Sequence record: NC_049341.1
Direction: 5' to 3' (one strand)
From: Escherichia phage 503458
DNA length: 31,194 nt
Shown here in pieces: positions 2,000 to 31,194 of this stretch. The position numbers were made by a program, and so were the translations under genes. Position 1 is the first letter of the stretch. The number at the start of each line of letters is the position of its first letter. The notes under the pieces were generated by a model. It was not told where the DNA came from, did no database searches, and worked only from the letters and a program-made list of their open reading frames with translations.

Positions 2000-3950
<1,951 letters not shown>

Positions 3951-8581: not shown

Positions 8582-8611
8582 AAAACCGCTAATGGTCAGA
8601 TTAGCGGTTTT
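8582..8611. terminator. Hairpin terminator between convergent U and invertase genes
   Basis: AAAACCGCTAAT-GGTCAG-ATTAGCGGTTTT perfect 12-bp stem followed by T-rich tract; overlaps the invertase stop codon. Confidence 0.6.
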
Positions 8612-9200: not shown

Positions 9201-9254
9201 ACTGAATCTCCCGTCCAAAAGCGCAAATCATGCCATGCAGGCCAGAAACGGCCA

Positions 9255-9280
9255 TTATTTAAAACCTCGGTTTGCAGGAA
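9255..9280. other. gix-like crossover site 1 (left boundary of invertible segment)
   Basis: TTATTTAAAACC-TC-GGTTTGCAGGAA, 12-2-12 architecture resembling gix/hix/cix sites. Confidence 0.8.
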
Positions 9281-10177
9281 ACGGTAAACAGGGCCAGGAA
9301 CGCGGTGCAAAAGAATGGTGATACCTTGTCCGGTGGGCTTACTTTTGAAAACGACTCAATCCTTGCCTGGATTCGAAATACTGACTGGGCAAAGATTGGA
9401 TTTAAAAATGATGCCGACAGCGATACTGATTCATATATGTGGTTTGAAACAGGTGACAACGGCAATGAATATTTCAAATGGAGAAGTCGCCAGAGCACCA
9501 CAACAAAAGACCTGATGAATCTTAAATGGGATGCTCTGTATGTTCTTGTTAAAGCCCTTTTCAGCAGTGAAGTAAAAATATCTACAGTCAATGCACTGAG
9601 GATATTTAATTCATCTTTTGGGGCTATTTTTCGCCGTTCTGAAGAAAACCTGTATATCATTCCTACACGAGAAAATGAGGGTGAAAATGGAGATATTGGG
9701 CCATTAAGGCCATTCGGCATCAACTTAAGAACAGGAATTGTGTTTGTTGGTAATGGTGCCAGGATTGATGGCGGGCTGGCACTTGGCACGAATAACGCGT
9801 TGGGTGGGAACTCTATTGTTCTTGGTGATAACGACACCGGATTTAAACAAAATGGCGATGGTAATCTGGATGTTTATGCTAATAACGTCCATGTTATGCG
9901 CTTTGTTTCCGGAAGCATTCAAAGTAATAAGACTATAAATATTACGGGGCGTGTTAATCCCTCGGATTACGGTAACTTTGATTCCCGCTATGTGAGAGAT
10001 ATCAGACTTGGCACACGTGTTGTCCAGACCATGCAGAAAGGGGTGATGTATGAGAAAGTAGGGCACGTAATTACCAGGCTTGGTATTGTCGGTGAAGTCG
10101 ATGGTGATGACCCCGCAGTATTCAGGCCAATACAAAAATACATCAATGGCACATGGTATAACGTCGCACAGGTGTAA
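9269..10177 (+). CDS. Alternative tail-fibre C-terminal variable segment (Sv'-like), promoterless in this orientation
   Basis: Open frame starts at the gix core; inversion would fuse it in frame to the H constant region (…VIEYLG-LQETVNRARNAV…); C-terminus …INGTWYNVAQV parallels H C-terminus …INGTWYNAGSI. Confidence 0.75.
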   Translation, partial: GLQETVNRARNAVQKNGDTLSGGLTFENDSILAWIRNTDWAKIGFKNDADSDTDSYMWFETGDNGNEYFKWRSRQSTTTKDLMNLKWDALYVLVKALFSSEVKISTVNALRIFNSSFGAIFRRSEENLYIIPTRENEGENGDIGPLRPFGINLRTGIVFVGNGARIDGGLALGTNNALGGNSIVLGDNDTGFKQNGDGNLDVYANNVHVMRFVSGSIQSNKTINITGRVNPSDYGNFDSRYVRDIRLGTRVVQTMQKGVMYEKVGHVITRLGIVGEVDGDDPAVFRPIQKYINGTWYNVAQV

Positions 10178-10180
10178 TTT

Positions 10181-10708
10181 ATGCAGCATTTAAAAAATAT
10201 TACTGCGGGTAATCCAAAAACTGTTGCCCAATATCAACTGACAAAAAATTTTGATGTTATCTGGTTATATACAGAAGACGGTAAAAACTGGTATGAGGAA
10301 GTAAATAGCTTTCAGGAAGACACCATAAAGATTGTTTACGACGAAAATAATATTATTGTTGCCATAACCAAAGATGCCTCAACGCTTAATCCCGAAGGCT
10401 TTAGTGTCGTTGAGATTCCAGATATAACAGTCAATCGTCGTGCCGATGATTCAGGGAAGTGGATGTTTAAGGACGGAACTGTGGTTAAGCGGATTTATAC
10501 AGCAGACGAACAGCAACAACAGGCCGAATCACAAAAGGCCGCATTGCTTTCCGAAGCTGAATCAGTCATCCAGCCACTGGAACGCGCTGCCAGGCTGAAT
10601 ATGGCAACAGACGAGGAGCGCACACGACTGGAGTCATGGGAACGCTACAGTGTTCTGGTCAGCCGTGTGGATACGGCAAATCCTGAATGGCCACAAAAGC
10701 CTGAATAA
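10181..10708 (+). CDS. Tail fibre assembly chaperone (Tfa), alternative copy
   Basis: 175 aa, [14 protein letters not shown]… N-terminus and …[20 protein letters not shown]-terminus typical of Tfa proteins; paralogous to 10737-11270. Confidence 0.85.
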
Positions 10709-10736: not shown

Positions 10737-11270
10737 TCATTCAGGTTGTTCGGGAAACGTTACTGGCAGGCTGGAAGTGTCTGTAGATTCGACTTTCTGC
10801 GCAAAGAGTATCCACTCTGTTAATTTTTGTTTACTCTCGTCGGAAATGATGCCCAGCCGTAGCTGTGAGTCCCATAACTGGGTTTTATCCCTGACAAGTT
10901 GCAACAGGCTTTGCTTTTCATTCTCTGCCTGCTGCCTCTGCTCTTCCCCGGTATAAGTTCGCTTTATCACTACGCCATCTTTGAACATCCATTTACCCGA
11001 AATATCAGCCCGGCGATTTGCTGTAATATCAGGTAATTCAACGACGCTTGCGCCTTCCGGATTAATTGCTGAAACATCCTTTTCAATACAAATAATAACG
11101 CCGTTATGGTCATAGACCATTTTCAAAGTGTCTGGCTGGAAATTCTTTTGTTCCTCATACCAGTTTTTTCCATCATCTGAATAAAGCCATTTGATGTTAA
11201 ATTGCTTTGTTAGCTGGTATTGCTCTTTTGTTTTAGGGTTGCCAGTAGTAATGTTTTTTAAGTGCATCAT
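10737..11270 (-). CDS. Tail fibre assembly chaperone (Tfa/gpG-like), currently expressed copy
   Basis: 177 aa, MMHLKNITTGNPKT…; immediately downstream of H on the same strand. Confidence 0.85.
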   Translation of the reverse strand: MMHLKNITTGNPKTKEQYQLTKQFNIKWLYSDDGKNWYEEQKNFQPDTLKMVYDHNGVIICIEKDVSAINPEGASVVELPDITANRRADISGKWMFKDGVVIKRTYTGEEQRQQAENEKQSLLQLVRDKTQLWDSQLRLGIISDESKQKLTEWILFAQKVESTDTSSLPVTFPEQPE

Positions 11271-11272
11271 CG

Positions 11273-13258
11273 TTAAATACTCCCCGCGTTATACCACGTC
11301 CCATTAATGCAATACTGAATTGGCCTTGCCTGTGTTGTATCAATTAATTCATCACGGTTTCCGTTAACTGAACCCGTAACGACATAACCTGACCTGTCAG
11401 ACCAGCCGGGACCATTCCATGTCTGAACAGATGACAGACCGCCAAGGCGAATACCTGTAATAAACCTTGAGTTACATTCTGCCCGCGTATATGCACCAAC
11501 ATCTCCCGCTGAAGGTTTTCGTGTCGTGGTATAGAAATCTGACCAACCTAATTCAAACCCATAACCATCACGAGCCGACCTGTAGGAAATGCCACCATTT
11601 TTATAATTCACACGGAATTGTACGGCAGGACAGCTACCAGCATTTATATTAAAGTGAAGAATTAATGCAGATGCACCACCAATCAGGGCGTTATATGCAC
11701 CACTATCCCAATTCCATCCAACGGATGTATCACCATTAACAGTATTACCTGTTTGTCGGAGTGCAAATGCATTGACATTTTTGGCACTAATTGAAATATC
11801 GCTAGAACCATCAAAACCAACTCCAGCAATTTTTCGTGCTGTTTTCAGCTTTGTTGCAGTAGCGGCATTGCCGGACAGTTCCCCAGAAAGGCCACCGCTG
11901 AATGTTTGTCGATTGGTCCAGGTATTCGCTGTACTGAGTAACGGTATTTTCTCCCCGCTTGTGCCGAGTTCTCGTAAACCGAGGTATTCGATAACGGCAG
12001 TAACGGTCGCTTTAGCCAGAATATCCCGTCCGACTTTTGTCAGGGTTGCCAGGCTGGCAACATCATTCCCCGTAAAATACGGAAACCTGTCTGCCGCAGT
12101 AGCAAGCCCGGCCAGCGCCGTCAGGGTGGCATCTTTCGGTTGCTTACCCGCAAGCGCGTTAGTCATGGTGGTCGCAAAATTCGGGTCGTTTCCCAGCGCC
12201 GCCGCTAACTCGTTCAGCGTATTCAGTGCGTCAGGTGACGAATCTACAAGGGCGGCAATCGCAGCCATAACGAAAGCCGTGCTTGCGATTTGGGTATTAT
12301 TCGTTCCCTGTCGCGCAGTTGGCGTTGTTGGCGTTCCGGTCAGCGCAGGACTGTTTAAGGGCGCTTTCTTGTTCGTTTCATCCATTACCGCCTTAACCGC
12401 TTTTGATGTCGCGGCCAGTGTTTCAGACGTGCTGTTGGTGGCACTACTGAGCTGGACTATCCCTTTTTGTGCCGTCGTGGCGTCCTGAGCGGTATATTTT
12501 GCGTTAGCAAGGTCATACGCGGCCTTTACTGCTTTCGGCGTTGCAGCCTGCGTTTCAGACGTGCTGTTGGTGGCGCTACTGAGCTGGACAAGGCCTTTTC
12601 GCGTCGTGCTGGCATCCTGCGCAGTATATTTACCGTTAGCAAGATCATACGCGGCCTTTACTGCTTTCGGCGTTGCAGCCTGCGTTTCAGACACGCTGTT
12701 AGTGGCGCTACTGAGTTGAACAAAGCCTTTTGCGGTCAGCGAGGCGTCCGGGTGACGTCGTGACTGTTCATGCTCTTTCAGTTTGTCATCCACGTAATCC
12801 ACTGTGGCCATCACCATGGTGTTATCCACGGTAAGCGCCACGGTGGCAGTGCTGGATACGGTCAGAATGGTGCGAAATGTTTGTGCACGACCGGACCCTT
12901 CGGCAACGGCTGGCTTGTAACTTTCGGCAGTATTTCCCACCGCGATTAAATCGCCGTGCTCATCAAATACACCAATTTCCCGGATCCAGAATCCGCCCGT
13001 TTCAGGAGGAATAACCAGCTCCGCAATAATGCGGTTCTGATGTGTTGCGTCCAGGATGACGCGATTAACAGTATGTCGCCACACCTCATGCACCAGACGG
13101 GTCTGCTTACTGTCTGGTGTGGGCAACGTGCCGCCACCGTCGCCCACGGCCATATGAGTCAGGCGGACAGGCTTACCATCTGGCGCGGCTGCCTGAGCTA
13201 ATTTTTTTGCACCCGTATCGGTGATAACGGTTTTAAATTTTCGTGTTGTGGTACTCAT
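11273..13258 (-). CDS. H: Tail fibre protein gpH (661 aa); constant N-terminal part outside and variable C-terminal part inside the invertible segment
   Basis: Long ORF with conserved N-terminus, three tandem ~44-aa repeats (KGxVQLSSATNSxSETxAAT…KYTAQDA…) and gix site 2 within the coding sequence. Confidence 0.9.
   Translation of the reverse strand: MSTTTRKFKTVITDTGAKKLAQAAAPDGKPVRLTHMAVGDGGGTLPTPDSKQTRLVHEVWRHTVNRVILDATHQNRIIAELVIPPETGGFWIREIGVFDEHGDLIAVGNTAESYKPAVAEGSGRAQTFRTILTVSSTATVALTVDNTMVMATVDYVDDKLKEHEQSRRHPDASLTAKGFVQLSSATNSVSETQAATPKAVKAAYDLANGKYTAQDASTTRKGLVQLSSATNSTSETQAATPKAVKAAYDLANAKYTAQDATTAQKGIVQLSSATNSTSETLAATSKAVKAVMDETNKKAPLNSPALTGTPTTPTARQGTNNTQIASTAFVMAAIAALVDSSPDALNTLNELAAALGNDPNFATTMTNALAGKQPKDATLTALAGLATAADRFPYFTGNDVASLATLTKVGRDILAKATVTAVIEYLGLRELGTSGEKIPLLSTANTWTNRQTFSGGLSGELSGNAATATKLKTARKIAGVGFDGSSDISISAKNVNAFALRQTGNTVNGDTSVGWNWDSGAYNALIGGASALILHFNINAGSCPAVQFRVNYKNGGISYRSARDGYGFELGWSDFYTTTRKPSAGDVGAYTRAECNSRFITGIRLGGLSSVQTWNGPGWSDRSGYVVTGSVNGNRDELIDTTQARPIQYCINGTWYNAGSI
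11969..11994. other. gix-like crossover site 2 (inside H, inverted relative to site 1)
   Basis: TTCTCGTAAACC-GA-GGTATTCGATAA; core GA is the complement of site 1 core TC; encodes …IEYLGLRE… in H. Confidence 0.8.
12420..12775. repeat. Tandem 132-bp repeats (~2.7 copies) within H
   Basis: GTTTCAGAC… unit recurs at 12420, 12552 and 12684. Confidence 0.85.
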
Positions 13259-18161: not shown

Positions 18162-18664
18162 CAGCACAACTCCGCAAAGATTCGCGGGCGGCACAGAATG
18201 TCAGAGATGGCCCAGCTCACATCACGCCACAAATCCGATGTCTGTATATCCAGAGCGTCCGCCCGGCGGTCGCCCTTGTCCGTTGTGTCTGCATCACGAT
18301 AACGCTCCAGAATCAGGGCGCGCGTGGCGGTATAAACAGCATTGCGCCAGTGCCAGAGATTGACGCTTTCTCCGTTAATTACGGGTGCCGGAACATCGGC
18401 CAGCGTCTGATGGCCAGCTGCCTGCTGTTCCTGCTGCCATGCTTCCAGCTCGCGGGTAACGTGTGCCACAGCCCCGGTGGCAGTATGCAGCAGGCGGGAG
18501 GTGGTCACACGGCCCGGCAGTCGTACCGCCAGACGCAGCTCGCGCAGCACAATATCCGGCCAGAATGCACCCGCTGAAATGCGGGTATCGCCATCATCGG
18601 TATCGGTGATGTCGTCCTCTGCGGGTCTGGGTTCAGTTCTGGCAACCATACTCATGGGGTTCAC
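18161..18664 (-). CDS. L: Head completion/stabilisation protein gpL
   Basis: 167 aa at conserved position between M and X. Confidence 0.7.
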   Translation of the reverse strand: MNPMSMVARTEPRPAEDDITDTDDGDTRISAGAFWPDIVLRELRLAVRLPGRVTTSRLLHTATGAVAHVTRELEAWQQEQQAAGHQTLADVPAPVINGESVNLWHWRNAVYTATRALILERYRDADTTDKGDRRADALDIQTSDLWRDVSWAISDILCRPRIFAELC

Positions 18665-18757
18665 TCCTGAAAAAAATCGGGCGGTGGGTGCACGGTGTAA
18701 ACGGTCACGGAGTCAAACCGGAACACTGCGCACGCCGCCCGCTGACGGGGTCAGTCG

Positions 18758-19558
18758 TTAACCGCGCTTCGCCTTCTGCGTCGCGGTGGTTTTTCGTGTT
18801 GCAGGCTTCCGCGTTGTCTTTTTACTTTTGCTGCTTTCGTCCTGCGCCTGCTGTGCGCTGGCGTCTTCTGGTTCGGCTGCGGAATCGGCTTTTTTCAGGG
18901 CGCGGGAAAGGGTTGCAATCTCGCGTTTCACACCTGCGTTCGGGTTCAGGTGCATCGCTTCGCGCAGCAGCTTCAGTGACAGGGCCATGTTGTCTGCATC
19001 GGTCAGACCACGACGGGCAAAGGCGCACGCCTTGCATAATTTGGCGCGTACTTCGTCCGGCATGTCCTGGTCGGTGACAATCTTCCGGAGGGTGTCCAGT
19101 GGTTCGATAAAGGCGGACAAATCTGCGTCGGCATCCGCTCCGGCCTGCGTCAGTACCGGGTTGCAGATTTCTTCGGTCAGTACCGTGGCAGCAGTACGGC
19201 CAAAGTTATCCGGCATGATGAGGTTGTGACAGACCACATACGCACCAATACGCAGCGCCAGCGGAAGATCGCCGCAGTCAATCGCCCACACCATCAGCGT
19301 GGCAATCACTTCATCCTGCTGCCCGCCGTCAGCCTCCAGCGTTCCCTCAATCCAGCCGGAAAAATCCGGCAACAACTCTTTTTTGATGGCGGCTTTCGCG
19401 CTTCTGGCCTGTACGCCCTTAAGCCGGGCCTGTGCCAGACGCAGACGATACAGCACCTCTTCATGCGCGGTACGCGCGGCGTGGTCCACGCCTTCATTCG
19501 CCCGGCCTGCGCGCTGTGCCATCACGTTCTGCCAGTGTTGCTGTGCAGGAGTAATCAT
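18758..19558 (-). CDS. M: Terminase small (endonuclease) subunit gpM
   Basis: 266 aa, …MPDEVRAKLCKA… and basic Lys/Thr-rich C-terminal tail, P2 M-like. Confidence 0.8.
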   Translation of the reverse strand: MITPAQQHWQNVMAQRAGRANEGVDHAARTAHEEVLYRLRLAQARLKGVQARSAKAAIKKELLPDFSGWIEGTLEADGGQQDEVIATLMVWAIDCGDLPLALRIGAYVVCHNLIMPDNFGRTAATVLTEEICNPVLTQAGADADADLSAFIEPLDTLRKIVTDQDMPDEVRAKLCKACAFARRGLTDADNMALSLKLLREAMHLNPNAGVKREIATLSRALKKADSAAEPEDASAQQAQDESSKSKKTTRKPATRKTTATQKAKRG

Positions 19559-19603
19559 TTTTTCTCTCCGTTACAGGCGGGCATGATGCCCGCCGTGAGT
19601 TGA

Positions 19604-20656
19604 TTAGCTGTCGGCGAACTTCAGGCCAGTGACCATCGCGCACTTGCCATAGTCTTCAACGACATAAGCGTCATTGATGGACTGGTAGGTGGCGATGCGG
19701 TTGTATTCCGGCTCGTCTTTCATCAGGCGACGCATTGAACCTTTCTGCCAGTAAATCGACAGGTTGTTGAACGAGGTGATCAGCATCGTTGCATCCGGGA
19801 AGAACGGCGCAAGGAACACGCCCAGCCCGCCAATGGTGCGCGATGACAGGATGAGCTGCCCGGCGAGTAATTCCGCATTGGGATTCTGGCCGCTGATGCT
19901 GTTCAGCACGGGCAGACGCAGCGAGTTAAACAGGTTGCGCCCCATAATCACCACGAGGTCGTCAGCTTCCTTGTGCCATTCATCCAGCAGGGATGAGCGC
20001 GCGTCCTGTACCAGTGCATCAGCATTCGCATACTTACCCGCGTGCGCCACGGTGTTGTCCATGTTACGGGAGGTCAGCGTCACGTCATTCATAACGCGCT
20101 CGCTGGCGTCGGTTCTGATGTGCTCCAGCCATCCCACGTTAACGTCCTGAAGCAGCTTGTTGGTGCTGAAGTTGGACTCATCCGCGTGAGACGTGCCGTT
20201 GAAACCGATCATGATGCGGTCAAGCGCCACCTGTCGGGCAATCTGTGCGCTGATGCGGGACTGAAAATCAGGGTGTGCCGCCCAGGCATCAAGCTGCGGA
20301 TATGAAATAAACGTGTCGTAGTTCACCTGTTCGCACTGGTATTTGCGGTTTTTCAGATCAACCACGTTATTCGGGTTACGGCGTTTTGTGCCGTCATAAC
20401 TGGTATTCGTGCGCGCAATCGGCCCGGTGGTATCCAGGAGGATTTTTTCACCTTTCTGGTCGGTCACGCCGATCACGTTAATTCTTTTTGTAAATTCGGT
20501 GCTTTCCTTTGAGGCGTTTTCAAAACGCTGCTGTACCGAGGGTTCCACGGTAAATCGCGATACCAGTGCGGAAATCGGGATATTGTTAAGCGACGCCTGC
20601 TGCGCCATATAGCAACCCAGCTTGTTGCGGGTAATATCTGACATCACCAGATTCAT
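19604..20656 (-). CDS. N: Major capsid protein gpN
   Basis: 350 aa, …FTVEPSVQQ…YDTFISYPQLDAW…LITSFNNLSIYWQ…YVVEDYG… resembles P2 gpN. Confidence 0.9.
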   Translation of the reverse strand: MNLVMSDITRNKLGCYMAQQASLNNIPISALVSRFTVEPSVQQRFENASKESTEFTKRINVIGVTDQKGEKILLDTTGPIARTNTSYDGTKRRNPNNVVDLKNRKYQCEQVNYDTFISYPQLDAWAAHPDFQSRISAQIARQVALDRIMIGFNGTSHADESNFSTNKLLQDVNVGWLEHIRTDASERVMNDVTLTSRNMDNTVAHAGKYANADALVQDARSSLLDEWHKEADDLVVIMGRNLFNSLRLPVLNSISGQNPNAELLAGQLILSSRTIGGLGVFLAPFFPDATMLITSFNNLSIYWQKGSMRRLMKDEPEYNRIATYQSINDAYVVEDYGKCAMVTGLKFADS

Positions 20657-20679
20657 AAAAAATTTGCTCCTTTGTCTTA

Positions 20680-21515
20680 TCAGAAGTCAGCCAGCTGGTC
20701 GGAGGCTGCGCCCGTTGCGGTGAACCGGTTCTGCGGATCGCCGTCCTGCGTGCGCAGTTTTTCCTTCAGTGCTGCCAGCTCTGTGGTCAGTGAAGTGATT
20801 TTCTGGCTGTCCTGCTGATGGCGGGTTTCCAGTGCATTAAAACGGTCGATAATGTCGGCCTGTGACGTTGCGACGCCTTCCACCGCTTCCTGAATGCGGG
20901 AGAAACTGGCGTCATCCGCTTTGCGGCCACGGCCAATAATCCCCATTACGCGGTTAAACCACTGGGTGCCTTCTTCCTGGCGTTGTTCTGCCATTTCGAT
21001 GATTTCAGACTCGATGGTTTCGGAGATAAGCGGTGCTTCACCCTGGACACCGTTGAACGTCATCACCGCCTGACGTTGCTGTGCCGTGAATTTCAGGCGC
21101 TCAGTGCCCAGGCTTGCCGGGGTGTCGGTCATCGCCAGCCCGACCAGATAGGCGCGCCCGTTAACGGAGAACTGCGGGTGCAGTTCGATACTGGAATAGA
21201 TTTTCTTGCCGTCCGCGACAAGCTGCTTCATGCGCTCGGTCGGTTCGATTTCTGCATACAGCGCAGTACGTCCGGCCAGCGGGCCTTCCGTAATATCTTC
21301 CGTACTCAGCGCGGTGACATCGCCCATTGCGGAAAATTCGCTTGACGGGCATGGCGAGAGATAGTGCTCAACGTTCACGCGGGCAGCGTAAACATCCGGG
21401 TTGAAGTTCTCGGGGCTTCACGCAGATGTACCGGACTGATTTCGCGGCCATCAACAGTTGATCCGGAGACAGCCACGCGAAACTTTTTGCGGGATGTCTT
21501 TTTTTCATTAGCCAT
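20680..21515 (-). pseudogene. O: Capsid scaffold protein gpO with one single-base frameshift near codon 45 (~21415)
   Basis: N-terminus MANEKKTSRKKFRVAVSGSTVDGREI… in one frame, remainder (…NVEHYLS…AYLVGLAMTDTPASLGTERL…) in another. Confidence 0.75.
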
Positions 21516-21669
21516 AGTTTTTGCCCCTCTGACTGGTTCTTCAGTCATGATGGCAAAGCGTAACAGGCTGATACAAAGGGCTTTTGTTGTAAGAAAACGG
21601 CCAGAACAGGGGGTTAAGGAGAACGGTTTCGCGCGCGGGTAATCTTCCTGTAATTACTCAGGGGGAGCA
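21516..21669. promoter_or_regulatory. Divergent late promoter region between O and P
   Basis: Only intergenic space between divergent capsid and terminase operons; no clean TGT-N12-ACA activator box found. Confidence 0.3.
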
Positions 21670-23417
21670 ATGATTCAGGACGCTTTTGTGCGCCAGCGTG
21701 CGCGGCAACTTTACTGGCAGGGTTATCCGCCCGCAGAAATATCACGTCTGATGGGAATAAACCCGAACACGATTTATGCGTGGAAAAAACGCGACCAGTG
21801 GGATGAAACGCACCCGTGCAGCGTGTCACGCAGTCCATTGATGCGCGCCTCATCCAGCTTACTGAAAAACAGAATAAAACAGGCGGTGACTTTAAGGAAA
21901 TAGACCTGCTGACCCGGCAGCTTAAAAAGCTGCATGATGGCCAGCCGGATGTGATGGCCGCAGGAAAGAAAGGCCGGGCGAAAAAACTCAAAAATCATTT
22001 CACGCCGGAACAGATTGCCGCACTGCGGGAAAAATCATCAGCAGGCTGGAGTGGCATCAGCGGGGCTGGTTTGACTCCCTGACCCTTTGCAGGGAAGCCG
22101 GGATACGTAACAGGATGATCCTGAAATCCCGACAGATTGGGGCGACCTGGTATTTTGCACAGGAAGCACTGCTGATGGCGCTGCGTGACGATGTGGCGCA
22201 ACCTTACCAGCGTAACCAGATTTTTTTGTCTGCGTCGCGTCGTCAGGCGTTCCAGTTTAAAAGCATTATTCAGAAGGCCGCGGCTGAAGTTGATGTGGAG
22301 CTGAAAGGGGGCGATAAAATCATCCTCTCCAACGGCGCAGAGCTGCATTTTCTCGGCACTTCTGCTGCGTCGGCACAGTCCTATACGGGCAATTTTTATT
22401 TTGATGAATTTTTCTGGGTCAGTCGCTTTGCTGAACTGCGCAAGGTGGCTGGCGCTATGGCAACCCTCAGCGGACTGCGGCGCACCTACTTCTCCACGCC
22501 ATCCACCGAAACGCACGAGGCATACGCCTACTGGAACGGCGACCGCTGGAACGAGAAAAAGGCCTCGCATAAACGCCAGCGTTTTTCTGTGGACTGGAAA
22601 ACGCTGCATAACGGGCTTATCTGCCCTGACCGGACGTGGCGGCAAATTGTCACGCTGGAAGATGTGGTTAATCACGGCTGGAAACACACCGATATCGACG
22701 AAATTCGTGATGAAAACACCGAAGACGAGTTCCTCAATCTCTATATGTGTGAGTTTGTCCGCGAAGGGGAATCGGCATTTAACCTGAATATCCTGATTGG
22801 CTGCGGCGTTGACGGATACGACGACTGGAAAGACTGGAAACCTTTTGCTCCCCGCCCGATGGGAATCGTCCGGTATGGATTGGGTATGACGCAAACGGCA
22901 GCAGTGGCAACGGCGACAGCGGCGCTGTGTCCGTGGTGGTTCCTCCGTCTGTTCTGGTGGCCGTTTTCGAACGGTGGAGACGCGACGCGTTCAGGGGCTG
23001 GAGTTTGAAGAACAGGCCAGAGTCATTGAAGAGTTCACGTGTCGCTACAACGTGGAACACATCGGCATTGATGTGACGGGCGGGAACGGGGAGGCTGTTT
23101 ATCAGATAGTGAAACGGTTTTTCCCTGCCGCTATTCCGTACACCTTCACGCTGTCATCAAAACGGTCGCTGGTACTGAAAATGCTGCAAATAATGCGTGC
23201 CGGGCGGTGGGAATACGATCGCGCCGAACGCGAGCTGGTCGCGGCCTTTAACGCCGTGCGTAAGGTGAAAACACCGGGCGGCTTTATCACTTACGAAACG
23301 GACCGTGCGAGGGGGATCAGCCACGGCGACCTTGCGTGGGCAACCATGCTTGCTGTCATTAACGAACCGATTGGCGGCGAAGGAGAAAACGAGCGTTTCA
23401 CGGTTATGGAGTTCTGA
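21670..23417 (+). pseudogene. P: Terminase large (ATPase) subunit gpP, split over at least four frames by single-base indels
   Basis: Successive ORFs 21670-21903, 21816-22082, 22115-23008, 22974-23417 read as one terminase-like protein when frames are joined. Confidence 0.75.
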
Positions 23418-24530
23418 TGAGCAGAAAAAATAAAAAATTGCGCATGAGTTCACGCATTGATCTCGCTGATGCGCTCAGGAAAGAATCGTCGCTCAGTGCA
23501 TTCACATTTGATGGTCCTTACCGCTGACCGGGCATGACCTGCTGGACAATATGTACTGTGCTGATAACGGTCGGTGGTATGAAACCCCGGTGGACTGGTA
23601 CGGTCTGGCAAGAGCTGCCCGGCAAACGTCCTGGCATCAGTCTGCGCTTTACTTTAAGCGCAATGTATTACTCGGTTGCTACATCCCGCACCGCTGCTTT
23701 CCCGGCAGGATTTCTCGGCGCTGGACTGGTTTGTGTTCGGTAACGCATTTCTTGAGCTTCGAAGCAATATGCTCGGCGAACCGCTTAAATTACGGCACGC
23801 CCTGGCGAAATACATGCGACGCGGAAGCGATCTTGAATCATGGTGGTATGTGCAGGATGGCAAGGACGCGTTTCAGTTTCGCCCTGGCAAAGTGTGTCAC
23901 CTGATGAATCCTGACATTAACCAGGAAATCTACGGCATGCCGGAATATCTCGGCGCATTACTCTCGGCCAGCCTGTCTCATTCGGCGGACATGTTCAGAA
24001 AACTGTATTACGACAACGGATCCCACGCCGGGTGCATCATCTACATGGTGCAGCGCAGGTAACCGCGAAAGCATGGACTCCCTGAAAGAAACGCTACAGG
24101 GTGCGCGTGGTGGTGGTGCGTTTAAAAACGTGCTCATTCATGCGCCCAACGGGGGCAAAGAGGGGGTGCAAATTTTGCCGTTCCAGCAGATCACCGCAAA
24201 GGATGAGTTCATGAATGTTAAGGCGGCATCCCGTGATGATGTGCTGGCTGCGCACCGCGTTCCGCGCAACTGATGGGGGCGATGCCGGGTGAAAAAAGTG
24301 CGTTTGGTGATGTGGAGAAGGCCGCGCGGGTTTACGCAATTAACGAGCTGATGCCCGTCATGGAGGCCATGAAGCACATCAATGACTGGCTTGGCGAAGA
24401 GGTGATCCGCTTTAACCCTTACGCACTGTTAGACATCCAGCCACATCCTGACGCGCTTCGCTTGTCTGCTGCTTCGCCGGGGCATAAAAAATTTATGCCC
24501 CGATCTCCAGCTCCTGTATCAGTCAGATAA
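23417..24530 (+). pseudogene. Q: Portal protein gpQ, fragmented by several frameshifts; 3' end uncertain
   Basis: ATGA overlap with P; fragments at 23417, 23551, 23676, 24073 and 24273 lie colinear in different frames. Confidence 0.65.
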
Positions 24531-24893
24531 TTTCACGACGCCTTCCAGTTTATCGCCACCATCGACGGTCAGACTCTTACGCAATCCACCGCGTTGACTG
24601 CATGTTCTCGCCGCCTCAGTGCGATTTTGACGGCCTTACCTTTCACCCCATAAATCAGAATCCTCACGTATTTTTCACGCTCAGCGTGAGAAATACGGCC
24701 ATTCTGTCGTGTCGCTGCGATCGTTAAGGAGCGCTATTTACCCCTGAAACGCGGGCTGTTCCCCGTCACCTGCGCGCAGAAAAACGCGTTTTTTTGTGCA
24801 CGCACGGATCCTTGACGGATCCAGCCGCCATGCGGGCCGGAAGTACAAAAAGTCGTTCAAAAAATTGTGCAAACTTGTGCACTATCGTGCAAA

Positions 24894-24917
24894 CAAAAAA
24901 GCGCCTTATCGGCGCTT
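24894..24917 (-). terminator. Possible rho-independent terminator for leftward transcription
   Basis: On the minus strand GCGCC-GATAA-GGCGC followed by TTTTTTGTTTG. Confidence 0.4.
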
Positions 24918-25213
24918 CAAAAGTATCAATTGTTGCTGTGTATTAATCGCCAACCACGAACATATGCTTCATAGGCATCTCTGTGCTTACAGTTCAGCCT
25001 GGCTAAACGGAATGTTAGCTAAAACTAAATCATTCTGAGCCATAGCGCGTCCTTCAAGCGCATCTTTTATGCCTAGCTCAAAAGCACAGGCAGCGCATTT
25101 GTGCCGACCTTCTTGTCCTTGATATTCAGGGAGAGACAGAATGTTGGGTTATAACGATGAGGGTTCTTGCAAATACCTGTTTTAGCCCGCACTTTATTTA
25201 CCTCATAGGAAAA

Positions 25214-25293
25214 ATATGCGTGCCTTTACAGAGGTGCGTGTAAGCAATAAATATACGACGCACATTTTGAACTACTTCGGAAGGCACGCATAT
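25214..25293. repeat. Perfect 13-bp inverted repeat (ATATGCGTGCCTT / AAGGCACGCATAT) separated by ~54 bp
   Basis: Direct reading of sequence; internal region also partly self-complementary. Confidence 0.7.
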
Positions 25294-25320
25294 CAGGTTA
25301 AGTGAGTCCGACCGAGTTTT

Positions 25321-25354
25321 ACGCCCCAATAGTTGCTGCTATTGGGGCGTTTTG
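25321..25354 (+). terminator. Rho-independent terminator (plus strand)
   Basis: ACGCCCCAATAG-TTGCTG-CTATTGGGGCGT 12-bp perfect stem followed by TTT. Confidence 0.55.
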
Positions 25355-25463
25355 CATGGACAATGCTGCGCAATTATCTTGTCGCTCACAATGCGAACGA
25401 TCTTACAAAAAGGCACATTACTGTCAAGTAATTGATCGTTTTAATCGATAGATAATAGACAAT

Positions 25464-25864
25464 CTATTTGTTTAACAGATCGATTATTGAAGTAAGTGTG
25501 CCAAATGGAATGATACTGTTTCTATAAACGTGAGCATTTTTCGCGCAGATGCTTTTACCAGGAAATAACGCCCGGATATTCCCAGCCATCTGGCTGGTTA
25601 TCTTAGCCACTGGTGCAGACTGTGCTTCAAACTTTTTTGAGCTGATTTGTGTCACAGGTAACATCTCATCATCAGCCATGCGGCCAGTCGGTAAGCCTCT
25701 GCCGGATTCATTTTCAGAAGTGCCAGCCCGGCCAGAAAAGCCACGCGTTGGCCGCTTTTGCGGGCTTCCGGTGTAAGGCTGTCCAGCCAGGCGCATGCTT
25801 CGCTTTCGTTCTTGACGGCCGCAGGCTTCAGATAGAAACTTATCCGCCTGGTTGGTGTCGTCAT
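25464..25864 (-). pseudogene. parR: ParR/StbB-like partition adaptor, one frameshift near 25655
   Basis: MTTPTRRISFYLKP…RVAFLAGLALL… then …NIRALFP… in a second frame, resembling plasmid R1 ParR from memory; AAGGAG RBS. Confidence 0.55.
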
Positions 25865-26815
25865 TGGTTTACTCCTTGTCCATTGCGTACAGCCCATTAA
25901 CCAGAGCAAACTGTGGCACCCCGTCCGCGATGAAAGTCGCATTAACTCCGCAGGCTTCGCGGATAGCGGGTGCCACAATCTCCGCCCCGCCACCGACAAC
26001 CATCACCCCCGTAACCCGAAAAACCCGCCAGCGCGCGGATCACGCGTTGTTTCAGTGTTTCTTCCTTTTCACGAATAACCGCCATCAGGCTGGCGTAATG
26101 CGCGTCATTGTGGATGTGCTGGCGCAGCCAGGCTTCATCATGGCGATGTTCGATAATGGTATTGGCGATGTGGTGACTGGTACGCATACCGTTAGTGGCC
26201 ATCACCGACAGTACTGCATCAGCCATCAGGGAAACGCCTACGTGTGGATCGCAAAACACCTGGCTGATACCTGCCAGTTGTCCCTGAACCTTTGCCACAT
26301 CCAGCGTGGTTCCACCTAAATCCACAATCAGCAGGGATTCAAACGGACTCATGTCAGCCAGTGCTTTAAAGCCAGCCGGAATGGATTCAGGCATAACCCG
26401 TACATTACGGATAGTGAATGCTTCGCCGTTCTGGTATTCCACGGGCGCATAACGTTTGCTTTTTTGCGGTTGATGTTGGCCATGTGGCTGTGTCGAAATA
26501 CTCGCTCAGTGGCAGGGTGACAACCACATCCACCTCCTGTGGCGTGATGCCTGATTTGACCAGCGCGTGATGAATGGCAATGACATTCACATCGCTGTAC
26601 TGGTATTGCGTGTCGGTCGTCTGGATAAAGCGATCGCTGACCGGATCAAAACCATAGCGCACGCCATCAAGCATGTAGTTCGCGGGCTGCGTGCCACCGA
26701 ACGGCGCAGACCATTCCGACTTGAAGCTGTTCGGGCTGATGGCGTTGCGGCGTTCGCCGTTCTCAGTCCATGCCAGCTTGATGTTGGTGGAGCCGTCGTC
26801 GATACAAATTTTCAT
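25865..26815 (-). pseudogene. parM: ParM/StbA-like actin-family partition ATPase, at least two frameshifts (~26440 and ~25990)
   Basis: N-terminus MKICIDDGSTNIKLAW…ISPNSFKSEW…YQYSDVNVIAIHHALVKSGI… closely parallels R1 ParM from memory; second fragment contains IVDLGGTTLDV phosphate-2 motif. Confidence 0.7.
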
Positions 26816-26845
26816 GTCGATTTTCCTTATGTTGATTAATTAACC

Positions 26846-26957
26846 GTTTACGGGATTCTGAAATCCCTCTTTTGCCTGTTTTGTGCGTGCTTCATATCGC
26901 GGCACGTTTTTTGCTCATTTACGGGATTTGTGAGTCCCGTTTCTGTCTGTTTTTTGT
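26846..26957. repeat. Two ~40-bp direct repeats, each containing a 6-bp-arm palindrome, upstream of parM (candidate parC-like centromere/operator)
   Basis: GTTTACGGGATTCTGAAATCCCTCTTTTGCCTGTTTTGTG and CATTTACGGGATTTGTGAGTCCCGTTTCTGTCTGTTTTTTG. Confidence 0.6.
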
Positions 26958-27093
26958 TTCCACTGGTCAGGCTACCCCGCAGCAGGTCTGCTTTGCGGTG
27001 GGCGCGTTCAGTGGTTTCACTGATTCTCTGTGCGTGCTCTGCGTCACGGATGGCGCGCAGCATGTCAGAAAGCACGGTAACGGGGGTTTTCAT
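26848..27093 (-). CDS. Small hypothetical ORF downstream of gpA; 3' half runs through the direct repeats, so true extent is doubtful
   Basis: 81-aa ORF in six-frame track. Confidence 0.3.
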   Translation of the reverse strand: MKTPVTVLSDMLRAIRDAEHAQRISETTERAHRKADLLRGSLTSGNKKQTETGLTNPVNEQKTCRDMKHAQNRQKRDFRIP

Positions 27094-27223
27094 GGTGTTC
27101 TGGTCTTGCTGAAGTGTGGATGCCAGGCGTGCGGCGGCTTCAGGGTCTGATGCCCCCAGCTGTTCCAGATAGCTGGCGACCGGGTTATGGCGGATCTCCG
27201 TGCTGCTTACGCCGTGATACGGC

Positions 27224-29547
27224 TCAGGCGTTGCCAGAGCTGCGTGATTCGGCTGTCCGGGCGGGTATCCGGTTTGCGTACAATTTCAAATCCCTGCGGT
27301 GCAATGATGCTGCCGTCAACGTACAGACTGCCGCCCGTAACAGGTGCTGCATCTGCTGTTCACCAATATGCAGGCCGAGAGATTCAGCAGACTCCCGCCA
27401 TTCTTTAGCGAGTAACTCGTGGTTATCAGGCAAAGGCTGTGGCTGTTTGCGGCTCTGTGTCCAGTTCTGCATTTCATCGCTGCTGTTTTTTGCCTGTTTG
27501 TCACGAAGCGAACGCATCAGCGCCCGGCGTTCGTGCCGTTTCAGTGAGCGCATCCATTCGTTCACGTCAACGCCGTCAGGAAGCTGCGGCCACGGTGCTG
27601 GCCGTTCTTCCGGCTGTTCTGTCCCGTTGTTGTCCGTTTCCTGTACACGGGGACAGTTATTGCCACGAGTCCAAGGGGCGGCAGGGCCGCCCTGAAGGTC
27701 AAAACCATTTTCGCGGGCGCTGTCTTCCGCTTCCGGTTTACGTCTTACCAGCTTCCAGTTATCCGGGTGCGTGCACACGCGGGAAGATTCCCCGATTTGT
27801 GGCGACCAGATCCCGTAAATCTGTACGCTTTGCTCGCCGTAATCGTTCAGCTCTTCTGCGAGGTCGTAGGCGGTGCGAATCAGGTAATCCTTGCGTGGAA
27901 CAAGTACGCCACCCTGTTTCTCAATGTAGGTGGCAAAACACCCGGCATCAGCGGCAGCGAGTACCGCATCCATTGCGTCATTTTCCAGACGTTGTGGACC
28001 TTCCGGGCTGCGGGCCATCTGACTGGCAAGGCGGCGGAGTTCACGCCATACCTGACGGGAGGGGATACCAAAGAACTGGAACTGGCGGACGCGGTGAAGG
28101 CGCGCCCAGCCGATGGCGCGTTCCACGCTCTCGGCCATTGATTTTCCGGTTTCGTGATCAACGCGTGGCTTGCCTGTTTTCGGGTCAATGCCATCCACGG
28201 CGCGGCTGTCCAGGTTCTTTCCGATGTAGGTGGCGCGTACCTTTCGAACCGTCGACGTACTCTGCCTTAAAGCGGAGTTATGTCATTGCCCAGCTCGTGG
28301 CGGTCTTCGCGAATGGCAATATCACGGGTGATGTCCACGATGCTGTCGATTTCTTCAGGATGTGCAAAGACCATCATGTGCCAGTGCACGGTGCCGTCAT
28401 GGTGTGGCTCCACCGTGCGGATGCCATACCAGCGCAGGCCGTCGCGGTTCAGTTTTTTGCGGACTAAAAAAAGTGTTAACCAGGTAATCGCTGGAATCGC
28501 GCATGGTGGTGCTGTTCCATTTGGGATTCGGATGACCGCTCTCCGTTGTTGCGTGATATTTTGACGGGCAGGTAACGGTCAGAAATACCGCTTTGTCGCC
28601 ACGGGCTTCGGCCAGAAGTTCCAGCCCCTTCATGGTGGCCATCATTTCTGCCTTACGGTGGACCGGGTTACTTACTCCCGCGTAATACACCGTCTCGAGA
28701 TCAATCGTGAACCCGTCTTCATTTTCCAGCATGAAACTTTTCAGGAAATCGCGTGTTTTCTCGCGCTGTGCGCGAAATTCACTTAATGCGTCCTGACTCA
28801 GATAGGGGGATGTTTTTCTGGAAACCAGACAGGCAGCGCGGAGTTGTTCCTCTCTCCATTCGCAACGTAAAAGCCACAATTTGCGTTTCCACCAGTCCGC
28901 ACAGGTCAGGCGGAGGATTGCACCCGGCAGCAGTTCCGTGTCCGGTTCGTTCTTCCGGTCTTTGTCTGTTGTCAGTGCGTCATAATGCGGCGGCACTGTC
29001 TGCAGATGTAACGCCATGCGGGCCAGCATCTGATACGCCTTCAGCGTTATATCCATGGTCAGCTCGCCGTCGATCGCGCCAAAGTCATCGCAGAGTTTTT
29101 CGAAGGTGCTGCTGAACATCGCCGTCATGACGGCCAGCGTCTGTATCTGGTGCTTGTTGAGCTGTGGCAGGTACAGCAAATCGTCCAGACGTTCACGTCC
29201 GGCAAGGGAGCGATAACCCGGAGTCAGCCAGCGACGGTCGGTGCGGGCCAGACGTTCGAATATTTTGCGCAGGGTTCCGCTCGCATAGCGTTCTGCCTGC
29301 TGGTTCTTTTTGCCTTTCTGGCGGTCAGATTCCTGTTTTTTGCGCAGGAAAGAGAGATGGCGGATAAGCGGATCACGCAGATAGGACGGCAGCAGACGCA
29401 GTGCGGCAATTGCTTCATCCACGCACCGCGTGCCTGCTTTCTGGCTTCTCTTGCCAGTGTGATGGCTTTGTCCTGTTTTTCCTGTGCGTCCAGGCTTTTA
29501 TTAATCAGATTGCCCAGCGGTGCGGCGGAGAACGCCGCATCAGCCAT
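27224..29547 (-). pseudogene. A: Rolling-circle replication initiator gpA (HUH endonuclease), split over at least four frames
   Basis: Fragments 29547-, 29422-28397, an HUH-containing piece (…HHDGTVHWHMMVF…) and 28198-27224 are colinear; tyrosine motif region (EYV…ATYIGK) is split by a frameshift. Confidence 0.7.
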
Positions 29548-29706
29548 TTCCTGGCGGCGCTCGTTCTCTGCCCGGTAGGCATCCAGCCAGGAAGAAAGAA
29601 GGGAGGGACGGACAGACTCCCCCGTCCCTCGCGACCGACTGCATGGCGTGGTTGTTGCCAGTCTCTGATGTACTCCGTTGCCACGCCGACTACTCCGCCT
29701 TGCCGC

Positions 29707-30050
29707 TCAGTGCATTGTGGCAGACGGTAGCCAGCCGCTGGATTGCATGGTGCTCTCTGTGCTGGCATAACGGTGTGTTATGCGAATGCTGTCAGCAATT
29801 ACATCAGCAATCAGAGATGAAGTTCGCTGGTAAATACCCAGTACGGAAGGCGTGCCGCTTTCGATGCGGGAAAGTGTGTAATCCTCCTGGCAGCTACCAA
29901 CCATGTAGCGCCCGTCAATAACAATCTGTCCGTCGGGAGCTGCTGTTCCGGCTGTGATTTCAGATACATTGCATAGCGGTCGAGAACGCGAATACCAAAA
30001 TCGCGCTCGGTTTTCAGCAGGTAATCAAAAAAGTTTTCGGCGAGAATCAT
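29707..30050 (-). CDS. Hypothetical early-region protein (~114 aa), apparent frameshift near 29905
   Basis: ORFs 29811-30050 and 29707-29904 are contiguous in adjacent frames; RBS AAGAGGA before ATG at 30050. Confidence 0.4.
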
Positions 30051-30191
30051 TGCGGCAATCCTCTTGTTGCAGATGTGCGAAGGCCTCCCGCCGCAAGGTG
30101 CAGGAAAGGCCCGGAACAGGAATTAACGGAGTTTGTTTTGCTGCCGGATGAGCTGCTGAAGCCCGACGTGGTTTCCGGCAGTAGGAGGTGC

Positions 30192-30437
30192 TCATGCTCT
30201 GATTTCCCTCAGTAGCTGGTTGAACATCTGGGTTAGTGGGTTGCTACACCCAAACGGCATCGGGTTTACCTGATAAGAAAAGCGACCGCCTGTTTTGCGT
30301 TCTTTTCTTATGACTGAACCGCTGCGCCAGAGACGGCGTAACTCCGCATTAATGGTTGTGGTTGGGGTAATCAGTGCTGCGGCGATTTCTCCACCACTAC
30401 AACCCGGATTGGCAGCGATGTAGTCCAGAATGGTCAT
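30192..30437 (-). CDS. Hypothetical small protein (81 aa), possible winged-helix DNA-binding protein
   Basis: ORF with ATGA-type overlap to the upstream ORF (translational coupling). Confidence 0.5.
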   Translation of the reverse strand: MTILDYIAANPGCSGGEIAAALITPTTTINAELRRLWRSGSVIRKERKTGGRFSYQVNPMPFGCSNPLTQMFNQLLREIRA

Positions 30438-30637
30438 CTGCGTGACTCCTGTACCTGTCTGATAAGATTCACCTGCACCACGTTGGTGGCGCAGAAGTAA
30501 GTGCCGTCAGTGAGATAGATGTGATGTGCATCCTTTTCTGAACGGTGTTTGTCGATTGTGGTAATCAGGCGTTCGTCAACTTCGTATTCACGTCCTCTGG
30601 AGGTGAAACGAACGACAGGAAAATGCTTAATTGCCAT
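30434..30637 (-). CDS. Hypothetical small protein (67 aa; start at ATG 30637 rather than track start 30688)
   Basis: AAGGAGG RBS 6 nt upstream of ATG at 30637. Confidence 0.5.
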   Translation of the reverse strand: MAIKHFPVVRFTSRGREYEVDERLITTIDKHRSEKDAHHIYLTDGTYFCATNVVQVNLIRQVQESRR

Positions 30638-30857
30638 TACGCCTCCTTGGCGTGTGCGAATACCTCCGCGAATGCGGATTGTTTTCACATTTTCTTATTT
30701 AACCTGGAGTCTTATTTGCGCGGTTATTCTTCAGTGAAAAAGCGTTCAATCTTTTTTTACAGAATTAATAATTCGCATAATCCCAATAGCGCAGGCCACC
30801 GAAATAAAACAAGCCATGAGATAAATATACTCATGCAATATTCCCAGTTTATATGGC

Positions 30858-31070
30858 TCAATATGGTCCCGTTTTCTGCGGCGCAGACGAGTACGGAAAG
30901 CTCGTCGAGCGCGTCCGGTCATCAACGTAAAAAGCCGTGTCGTACAGACTCTTGATGGCTCTGGTCAATGACTCTCGGGCTGCGCGTTCAGCATGAGCGC
31001 CTGATGCGTTTAAGCGAAAATGAAAGCGCTCAAGTGCTTTATTGACGAGAGTTTTATATTCTTTATCCAT
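30858..31070 (-). CDS. Hypothetical small early protein (70 aa)
   Basis: ORF in early-region orientation; function not recognised. Confidence 0.4.
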   Translation of the reverse strand: MDKEYKTLVNKALERFHFRLNASGAHAERAARESLTRAIKSLYDTAFYVDDRTRSTSFPYSSAPQKTGPY

Positions 31071-31081
31071 CGCAACGCCCT

Positions 31082-31194
31082 TTAATCTGCCTTCTGAATT
31101 TCAGCTTCTGAATCCATGCAGATAATTTCGAGGTAGGGTTTATCGCCATTAACCTGACGTGCTTTTTCAGCTTCGCTAATAATTTCGCATACGG
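31082..31194 (-). CDS. 3' end of a hypothetical ORF running off the right edge
   Basis: Open reverse frame ending …EIICMDSEAEIQKAD with stop at 31082-31084. Confidence 0.3.
   Translation of the reverse strand, partial: VCEIISEAEKARQVNGDKPYLEIICMDSEAEIQKAD

Follow-up and report, generated by a model that had tools for sequence, protein, structure and literature searches.

The interval of approximately 0.9 kb between the portal gene and the partition locus of Escherichia phage 503458 (NC_049341.1; the window analysed here is the whole 31,194 nucleotide (nt) stretch) raises the question of what is carried by phage DNA that appears to hold no gene. The first-pass annotation described positions 24540–25460 as a structured non-coding region that might encode a small RNA or small peptides. 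Comparison with related prophages supports, with fair confidence, a different reading, in which two adjacent units of a P2-like (Xuanwuvirus) prophage lie side by side: the cohesive-end (cos) site and a self-contained cargo cassette on the minus strand, with a gene for an 89 amino acid protein and a leader. Homology, the gene, purifying selection, conservation of the promoter and terminator, and covariation of the leader helices are all backed by sequence comparison. The region itself is ordinary and the type of locus is known; the gene family and the leader are uncharacterised, and the function proposed for them is conjectural.

The 1.2 kb around the interval aligns end to end with Escherichia phage 520873 (L001; Xuanwuvirus, Peduoviridae, P88/P2-like) at 98.4% identity. 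In the base-by-base alignment all 19 differences are bases deleted in the window and there are no substitutions. Over the whole 12.87 kb overlap of the two phages (18410–31194) there are 84 one-base deletions, 2 insertions and 2 substitutions, with more than half of the 84 deletions in runs of at least two identical bases. At each of the 19 positions that differ in the 1.2 kb, two further intact E. coli copies agree with phage 520873 against the window. Frames are broken throughout the window because of these one-base deletions; the portal, ParM, ParR and replication genes, among others, are split into short open reading frames (ORFs), and an ORF-based reading of this window is unreliable. The pattern is best explained as unpolished long-read consensus error, not gene decay, and the broken frames are taken here as sequencing errors. 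That the frameshifts are real, and that the cargo gene, portal, ParM and others are pseudogenes of a decaying prophage, is highly improbable. The deletions do stand in the window and an IS21 element is inserted in the tail region, but 84 deletions against 2 substitutions, across all genes and enriched in short homopolymers, are the mark of long-read consensus error.

The borders of the interval are affected in the same way. The true 3' end of the gpQ-like portal gene (24273–24451, plus strand) is at 24451, where the coding sequence (CDS) of phage 520873 ends (L001 position 6053), and the frame open to 24530 past the portal gene is a frameshift artefact. On the other side, the ParR-like gene (Pfam Plasmid_stab_B, E=1e-23; 3' part at 25555–25796, minus strand) has its true stop at about 25555, and the ORF end at 25464 is also a frameshift artefact. 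The limits of 24540–25460 given earlier have to be moved outwards to these two positions.

The cargo gene lies at 24926–25192 on the minus strand. It encodes 89 amino acids from a GTG start, with a GAGG ribosome-binding site (RBS) 8 nt upstream, and is annotated as a CDS in phage 520873. The gene is intact and identical in three independent copies, L001, L003 and L004, and the copy in the window is broken by one-base deletions after 24985, 24994 and 25139. The earlier view that the region contains no convincing ORF does not survive this comparison, and the small peptides suggested in its place, an 18-codon ORF (MAQNDLVLANIPFSQ...) and a GTG-start fragment (MRAKTGICKNPHRYNPT...), are pieces of the 89 amino acid protein. 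An indel-ridden assembly can in this way disguise a real gene as a 'structured non-coding region'.

A second cassette allele, type B (L011 and L012), encodes a protein with 57% amino acid identity to that of type A, the type present in the window. The type B gene has an ATG start and is not annotated by the Prokaryotic Genome Annotation Pipeline (PGAP). Between the two type B copies the ratio of non-synonymous to synonymous change (dN/dS) is 0.055, and comparison of type A with type B shows saturation at synonymous sites. The low ratio, together with the conservation of the protein across saturated synonymous sites, indicates a protein-coding gene under purifying selection. The NCBI pipeline leaves the 89 or 92 amino acid gene unannotated in many intact genomes (L003, L004, L011 and L012), though it is open and conserved. 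In type B a second gene with its own RBS comes after the zinc-binding gene (L011 and L012, 3263–3550, minus strand), encoding 95 amino acids that belong to PHROG 33929, of unknown function. No conserved downstream partner gene of the 89 amino acid family was found.

The protein is a full-length match to PHROG 3941 (E=6.3e-49, residues 4–89 against profile positions 1–86 of 86). This is a phage family of unknown function, to which probable zinc ligands, fusions of the N-terminal half and a leader RNA are added here. A search of 1.84 billion cluster representatives returned 172 relatives at E<1e-3, mostly stand-alone proteins of 81–95 amino acids from many phyla. Seven residues (C8, H12, R30, G41, Q65, R70 and G81) do not vary, and H31, C33 and C36 are almost as constant. 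The conserved pattern C-x3-H ... RHKC-x2-C, with the motif SQAGxVRH(K/R), makes a zinc site likely, and the protein is probably zinc-binding. Its AlphaFold model has a pLDDT of 90. An RMF/CrpP-like identity was considered and rejected, there being no support from Pfam, PDB profiles or fold, and RMF appears only at E=2.9 in BFVD. The family is thus a widespread and uncharacterised small Cys/His family, and the closest of its members have a covarying leader that is absent from Rfam.

The other unit of the interval is the cos site. The first-pass annotation expected cos to lie here and had found no match to it; the expectation is supported. The block at 24745–24891 is the sole non-coding DNA common to divergent P2-like lineages, being shared by four with non-aligning flanks (Xuanwuvirus, the Novemvirus phiT5282H, L010 and L205). 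It is located between the portal stop (24451) and the cargo, as expected of a P2-type cos, and is found in 1141 of 5426 complete E. coli genomes. The two most conserved parts of the block are GGGCTGTTCCCCCGTCACCTGCGCGC and AATTGTGCAAAyTTGTGCACTATCGTGCA. In the account of Ziermann and Calendar (1990) relayed by PMC5694545 and PMC9122126, the cos sites of P2, 186 and P4 have 19 nt 5' cohesive ends in a 55 bp core.

A direct search of the window for the phage P2 cos, by BLAST and fuzzy search, gave nothing significant, and the homologue of the cohesive end was reached only through an intermediate prophage, L205. In L205 the homologous 19-mer GGTGACGGGGGGAAAGCCC matches P2 at 15 of 19 positions in the same orientation. 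It sits in a 55 nt local alignment to the P2 cos junction with a score of 18, where the best shuffle reached 15 (0 of 200 as high), and the same alignment pairs TGCATTAAAAC of P2 with the element TTTTTGTGCA (24790–24800) of the window. In the window the corresponding sequence is at 24753–24770 on the minus strand, GGTGACGGGG(G)AACAGCCC, with one G lost. Read towards the portal gene, this 19-mer is GGTGACGGGGGAACAGCCC. It shares 13 of 19 positions with GGCGAGGCGGGGAAAGCAC, the cohesive end of P2, which is oriented the same way with respect to the portal; this match is not significant alone. By transitive homology 24753–24770 would be the cohesive-end homologue, with the exact nick sites placed only by inference. 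An alternative register, with CCGTCAGCGCGCAG of P2 against CCGTCACCTGCGCGCAG of the window (24763–24779), was dropped in favour of the 55 nt alignment through L205.

Several further elements belong to the block. Palindromes flank the 19-mer, CTGCGCGCAG at 24770–24779 and AAAAACGCGTTTTTTT at 24780–24795. L010 retains the GGATCC-TTGAC-GGATCC element found at 24807–24823, and phiT5282H and L205 retain part of it. Three phased (T/C)GTGCA repeats, 9–10 bp apart on the plus strand (24866–24891), are the most conserved part of the block. The clustered TGTGCA motifs and the GGATCC element had both been pointed out before, and both are present: TGTGCA occurs at 24795 (24795–24800), 24866 and 24876, and CGTGCA at 24886. 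With 15 copies of TGTGCA in the window against about 29 expected, the motif is under-represented and the three within 87 bp are a real cluster. By analogy with P2-type sites the GTGCA repeats may be terminase-recognition repeats. The palindromes, GGATCC element and repeats would then be part of the packaging signal and presumably be recognised by terminase.

Like the cos of P2, 186 and P4, the site lies just beyond the end of the portal gene and has a G-rich 19-mer in the same orientation, GC-rich flanks, an adjoining TGCA..AAAAC element and phased TGCA repeats about 100 bp off, which in phage P2 are to the right of cos. It differs in that the sequence is too diverged for a direct match, that it lies about 300 bp from the portal stop where the distance in P2 is 168 bp, and that it has extra palindromes and the GGATCC element. 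This would locate the cos of the very common P88-like prophages, present in about one fifth of complete E. coli genomes.

Conservation of the block ends abruptly at about 24891, with different cargo beyond this point in each phage. P88, P88_4B11, phiT5282H, L010 and L205 all have different cargo past the same boundary, in each case opening with its own terminator. Of 5426 complete E. coli genomes, 1106–1141 have the part of the interval that lies left of about 24891, and only 166–173 have the right part, with the cassette. The exact boundary of cargo exchange is defined by this position. The interval between gpA and gpQ is a published cos-adjacent hotspot, and about a quarter of P2-like phages also have a partition system (PMC9122126). 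The anti-phage hotspot next to cos, the old/tin locus, has been described by Rousset et al. 2022 (PMC9122126) and in NAR 2026 (PMC13586616). In the window the cassette occupies the same slot, bounded on one side by replication gene A with its neighbours parM and parR and on the other by portal gene Q, with the same turnover of cargo between close relatives and a ParM/ParR module present. Unlike the known defence cargo of the hotspot, here there is one 89 amino acid protein without a match to any PADLOC defence model. A cassette located in a hotspot rich in anti-phage genes is a cheap and well-defined candidate for functional tests.

The cassette extends over approximately 24896–25490 on the minus strand and consists of palindromes, promoter, a leader of about 200 nt, gene and terminator. 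The near-consensus minus-strand promoter noted previously stands: it is a predicted sigma-70 promoter, TTGACA-16-TAAGAT (25427–25400), with 10 of 12 positions matching. Its hexamers are kept between types A and B and in other genera, and the spacer varies. The candidate minus-strand terminator was also recovered, by a terminator scan, at 24918–24898. This intrinsic terminator is conserved, begins 8 nt past the stop codon of the cargo gene, and has an 8 bp stem, 5 of whose pairs are G-C, followed by a TTTTGTTTG tail. Other phages carry a different terminator at that spot, which makes this one part of the cassette.

Upstream of the promoter are AT-rich nested palindromes with GATC/ATCGAT sites (25430–25489), nearly identical in types A and B, which may form an operator. 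A GATC is located 8–9 nt upstream of the -35 hexamer, or overlaps it, in 13 of the 13 leaders compared (window 25385–25440, L011, L012, L053, L060–L065 and L069), and in most of these a second GATC is found right after the -10 hexamer. The arrangement of GATC sites and palindromes suggests added transcriptional control that would be Dam- or SeqA-sensitive or act through an operator. The palindromes were also considered as a par centromere. They resemble the parC of R1-type ParMRC systems, in which AT-rich iterated or palindromic sequence lies beside the parM-parR pair with a promoter inside. This was rejected, the palindromes being absent after the same parR in P88 and P88_4B11; unlike parC they lie downstream of parR and travel with the cargo cassette, not with parMR.

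Between the promoter and the gene, at 25193–25394 on the minus strand, is the predicted structured 5' leader of the cargo mRNA, comprising helices P1, P2 and P3 followed by a GUAAAG motif and the RBS. P1 (about 25354–25394) is a hairpin at the 5' terminus. P2 (25321–25350) has a GC-rich stem of 11–12 bp and a 6 nt loop, and is the hairpin that had been described as a plus-strand terminator. P3 (25214–25293) is formed by the perfect 13 bp inverted repeat reported before, with arms at 25214–25226 and 25281–25293, and its 3' arm overlaps the GUAAAG. The type A leader folds with a minimum free energy (MFE) of -77.1 kcal/mol (z = -3.81).

Upstream of the gene types A and B are about 74% identical, but unevenly. 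The palindromes at 25430–25489, both hexamers, the 25321–25350 stem and the RBS are nearly identical, whereas conservation does not extend to the promoter spacer, the 13 bp inverted repeat or the remainder of the leader. The P2 stem is identical in the two types although the synonymous sites of the gene are saturated, and among viral contigs this hairpin and the palindromes occur together in 35 of 38. The same upstream plan is found at the closest orthologues (53–60% identity), in Gilliamella, Providencia, Proteus and Pantoea: GATC, -35, -10, P1, P2 with its GC-rich base 41–52 nt after the -10, P3 over the invariant GUAAAG, and the RBS. The hairpins, whose conservation in related prophages had been named as a test, are kept there and beyond. 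The sequences of the arms differ. Those of P2 are CGCCCCAATAG/CTATTGGGGCG (E. coli), AGCCCGATA/TATCGGGCT (Gilliamella), ACCCCT/AGGGGT (Providencia) and GCCCCA/TGGGGC (Pantoea). For P3, E. coli type A has the 13–14 bp repeat, Gilliamella has GGGCTTTATT/AGTAAAGCCC and Providencia has GGTTTTACATG/TGTGTAAAGCC. The P2 loop is cgccaa in Gilliamella L060 and its reverse complement, ttggcg, in L063, with identical arms, and the Gilliamella hairpin appears to have been inverted as a unit.

Covariation was assessed in two alignments. In the hand-built alignment 83.5% of cells are paired (shuffled 68.5%, 0 of 500 as high; slid registers 38–46%), the covariation score is 0.418 (shuffled 0.190, 0 of 500; slid 0.07–0.15), and 18 pairs change on both sides (shuffled 14.4, with 25 of 500 reaching the observed value; slid 4–11). 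In the 17-sequence alignment made by the covariance model (CM) 82.2% of cells are paired (shuffled 65.7%, 0 of 500; slid 36–48%), with a score of 0.458 (shuffled 0.204, 0 of 500; slid 0.07–0.16), and 21 of 37 pairs change on both sides, including 8 of 11 in P2 and 8 of 13 in P3. P2 has 90% of its cells paired in this alignment.

The CM from the hand-built alignment finds the window copy at 25169–25410 on the minus strand with 151.8 bits. Related loci of the family were retrieved with a 6-sequence alignment. A metagenome scan with a DNA pattern that left P2 and the 5' arm of P3 unconstrained gave 65 matches, of which two, independent of each other, were accepted as leaders by the CM. In both the gene follows immediately, and in P2 a U-A pair of Proteus is replaced by C-G, a compensatory change. 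Sequence comparison thus points to a structured cis-regulatory leader, with a conserved fold, compensatory changes and a fixed place upstream of orthologues, and the regulatory response it would give is conjectural. The covariance search proposed earlier yielded nothing from Rfam: of its 4227 families none matches at the gathering threshold in the window, and only chance-level hits (E<=10) are seen in the intact L001 and in Gilliamella L063.

These inverted repeats might instead be duplex DNA operators, bound for example by the zinc protein as an autorepressor, and not RNA helices. Both P2 arms are 100% conserved between types with saturated synonymous sites, the arm sequences are similar across genera (GCCC.RATA), GATC-containing palindromes surround the promoter, and loops that are reverse complements of each other, as in L060 and L063, are expected of a symmetric DNA site. 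Yet between genera P2 (8 of 11 pairs) and P3 (8 of 13) change sequence completely with pairing kept. P1 and P3 have about 30 G-U cells each, meaningless for duplex DNA, and the P3 arms are 34–55 nt apart with variable loops, P3 overlapping the RBS region. DNA operators in place of RNA helices are therefore very unlikely.

Several observations weigh against the reading of the interval as a cos site beside a cassette with an RNA leader. The transcription start, leader and terminator are predictions from sequence. Both alignments were fitted to the structure, the first by hand and the second by the model from it, which inflates the 83.5% and 82.2% of paired cells, and the leader alignment covers only about six independent lineages. 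Most distant family members lack the leader, none having been found by the CM near about 70 of them. In type A no clear hairpin sequestering the Shine-Dalgarno (SD) sequence was found. The protein has no match in Pfam, NCBIfam, PADLOC, PDB or BFVD. Apart from the modest match of the window 19-mer to that of P2, the P88_4B11 record has its ends at another place, about 24848, and lacks a terminal repeat; no record with proven physical ends was found. G-U counting favours the sense strand modestly overall (82.2% against 78.0%), as it does for P1 (77% against 67%) and P3 (80.5% against 75.6%), but P2 pairs slightly better antisense (89.8% sense, 93.0% antisense). In E. coli P2 also has, beyond its GC-rich stem and short loop, a TTTT tail on the plus strand.

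The last two points raise the possibility that in E. coli P2 is also, or instead, a plus-strand terminator, one that would stop antisense or late read-through from the portal and cos side before the cassette promoter, parMR and the replication genes. Types A and B have the same stem and tail though their flanks have diverged, and the variant L049 retains pairing only on the plus strand, as G-U. However, the T-run is complementary to a purine-rich flank, GGGAA(A) (GGGAA/CAAAA), which all genera keep on the sense strand and of which it may be a by-product, and the other genera have no usable tail. Other terminator-like palindromes are already present upstream, inside cos, and the consensus terminator scan did not list the 25321–25350 hairpin. 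A terminator role for P2 is unlikely, and the 'plus-strand terminator' is probably incidental, the T-run being a complement of the conserved flank, though P2 may have a secondary insulating role in E. coli. Of the strong terminator proposed at 25321–25354, the hairpin and TTTT stand, but with the scan silent and no T-run elsewhere it is best read as P2.

The original idea of a truly non-coding structured region, with a small plus-strand RNA ending at the 25321–25354 terminator and/or small peptides, has scarcely any probability. Points in its favour are the TTTTG after the hairpin on the plus strand, kept in both E. coli cassette types, a plus-strand ORF of 28/29 codons with an AGGA RBS just upstream of the hairpin, and weak sub-threshold Rfam matches to ctRNA and sar terminator stems that fall here. 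Against these, the promoter search gave none on the plus strand, and type B does not keep the plus-strand ORF (it has a 27 nt deletion and an unrelated peptide). The strand opposite the equivalent helix lacks a T-run in Gilliamella, Providencia, Proteus and Pantoea, the 'peptide' ORFs are pieces of the 89 amino acid gene, and P1 and P3 contain G-U pairs that fit the minus strand better. The hairpins are best read as helices of a minus-strand 5' leader. A type I toxin-antitoxin or small-peptide locus was rejected, the 28/29 amino acid plus-strand ORF not being conserved in type B and the short minus-strand ORFs being frameshift fragments.

If the cassette with its leader is accepted, its working can be proposed as follows. 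Minus-strand transcription would start near 25393, driven by the sigma-70 promoter and the upstream GATC palindromes, and give an mRNA with a leader of about 200 nt. P1, at the extreme 5' end, may stabilise or protect the mRNA. P2 and P3 would form a regulatory fold, and the leader would control expression of the gene after transcription has started. It would probably do so by alternative pairing, with the 3' arm of P3 (GUAAAGCC...) competing with a hairpin that sequesters the SD sequence. Such SD-pairing hairpins are seen in the MFE folds of type B (ACCUCA/UGAGGU), Providencia (CCUGU/ACAGG), Proteus (CCCUG/CAGGG) and Pantoea (GCACCUU/AAGGUGC). Their 5' arm abuts or overlaps the 3' arm of P3 (GUAAAGCCC then UG), and this overlap suggests a switch between P3 and SD sequestration. 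The leader is in this respect like those that sequester the SD sequence (riboswitch expression platforms, RNA thermometers and ribosomal-protein leaders), with a long 5' UTR, covarying helices and, in several lineages, an SD-pairing hairpin that overlaps the 3' arm of a long-range helix. Unlike them it has no Rfam match and its range is narrow, being mobile elements of Enterobacterales and Orbales.

The genes associated with relatives of the protein give some indication of its role. Only its N-terminal half occurs in fusion proteins (P0048, P0050, P0062, P0065, P0072 and P0019), joined to NOV_C/DUF3883 nucleases (like PADLOC PDC-S36 and PD-T4-1), HNH_2 nucleases or a WYL protein. These fusions suggest that defence nucleases reuse the N-terminal Cys/His half as a sensor or binding module. 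One homologue, 52% identical, is directly upstream of a BstA_C-domain protein, and other homologues lie among toxin-antitoxin or methylase genes. These contexts suggest mobile-element conflict systems, though no function is established by them. It is a guess that the 89 amino acid protein acts as a nucleic-acid-binding module in the phage-defence or counter-defence sphere. A more tentative proposal, which is possible but rather doubtful, is that leader and zinc protein are a new self-regulating hotspot module, in which the protein would bind its own leader or the GATC palindromes, or the leader would sense an infection-related signal. The module might then be a minimal defence or counter-defence gene, or a sensor or regulator of variable effectors (the BstA_C-like protein, the 95 amino acid partner, or the fused NOV_C/HNH nucleases).

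The DNA between the portal gene and cos has features of its own. Just 3' of the portal stop the hairpin GGGGCATAAAAAATTTATGCCCC (24478–24503), without a T-run, is identical in eight Xuanwuvirus variants and occupies the position of the tQ terminator annotated in phage P2. A frame of 42–45 codons (...VVKLSD; 24519–24667, minus strand) is open in 8 of 8 Xuanwuvirus variants. It was not accepted as a gene, as its substitutions are not codon-periodic across the eight variants and it has no family match. Some relatives carry further cargo here, in a second slot that separates the portal stop from cos. In L003 (2315–2839, minus strand) this contains a gene for a 174 amino acid PHROG 5091 protein, and in L011 (2693–2950, plus strand) one for an Ogr/Delta-like zinc-finger protein. 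Among 1254 places where cos-proximal sequence was found the sole plasmid-borne copy is that in NZ_CP183151.1, an E. coli plasmid of 129 kb (10858–11247). This copy may represent a P88-like element maintained as a plasmid, a possibility consistent with the parMR genes.

Elsewhere in the window, the left end was considered as an integrase with a replicase and is instead made up of IS21 and tail genes. The IS21-family element (2183–3864, minus strand) adjoins the prophage tail-tube gene and has an IstA-like rve transposase (2842–3864) and an IstB ATPase (2183–2845). A serine DNA invertase (Resolvase and HTH_7; 8601–9218, minus strand) lies in the segment 8601–13258, alongside oppositely oriented tail-fibre and tail-fibre-assembly genes (9272–10708, plus strand; 10737–13258, minus strand). 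The segment looks like an invertible host-range segment of the Gin/Cin type.

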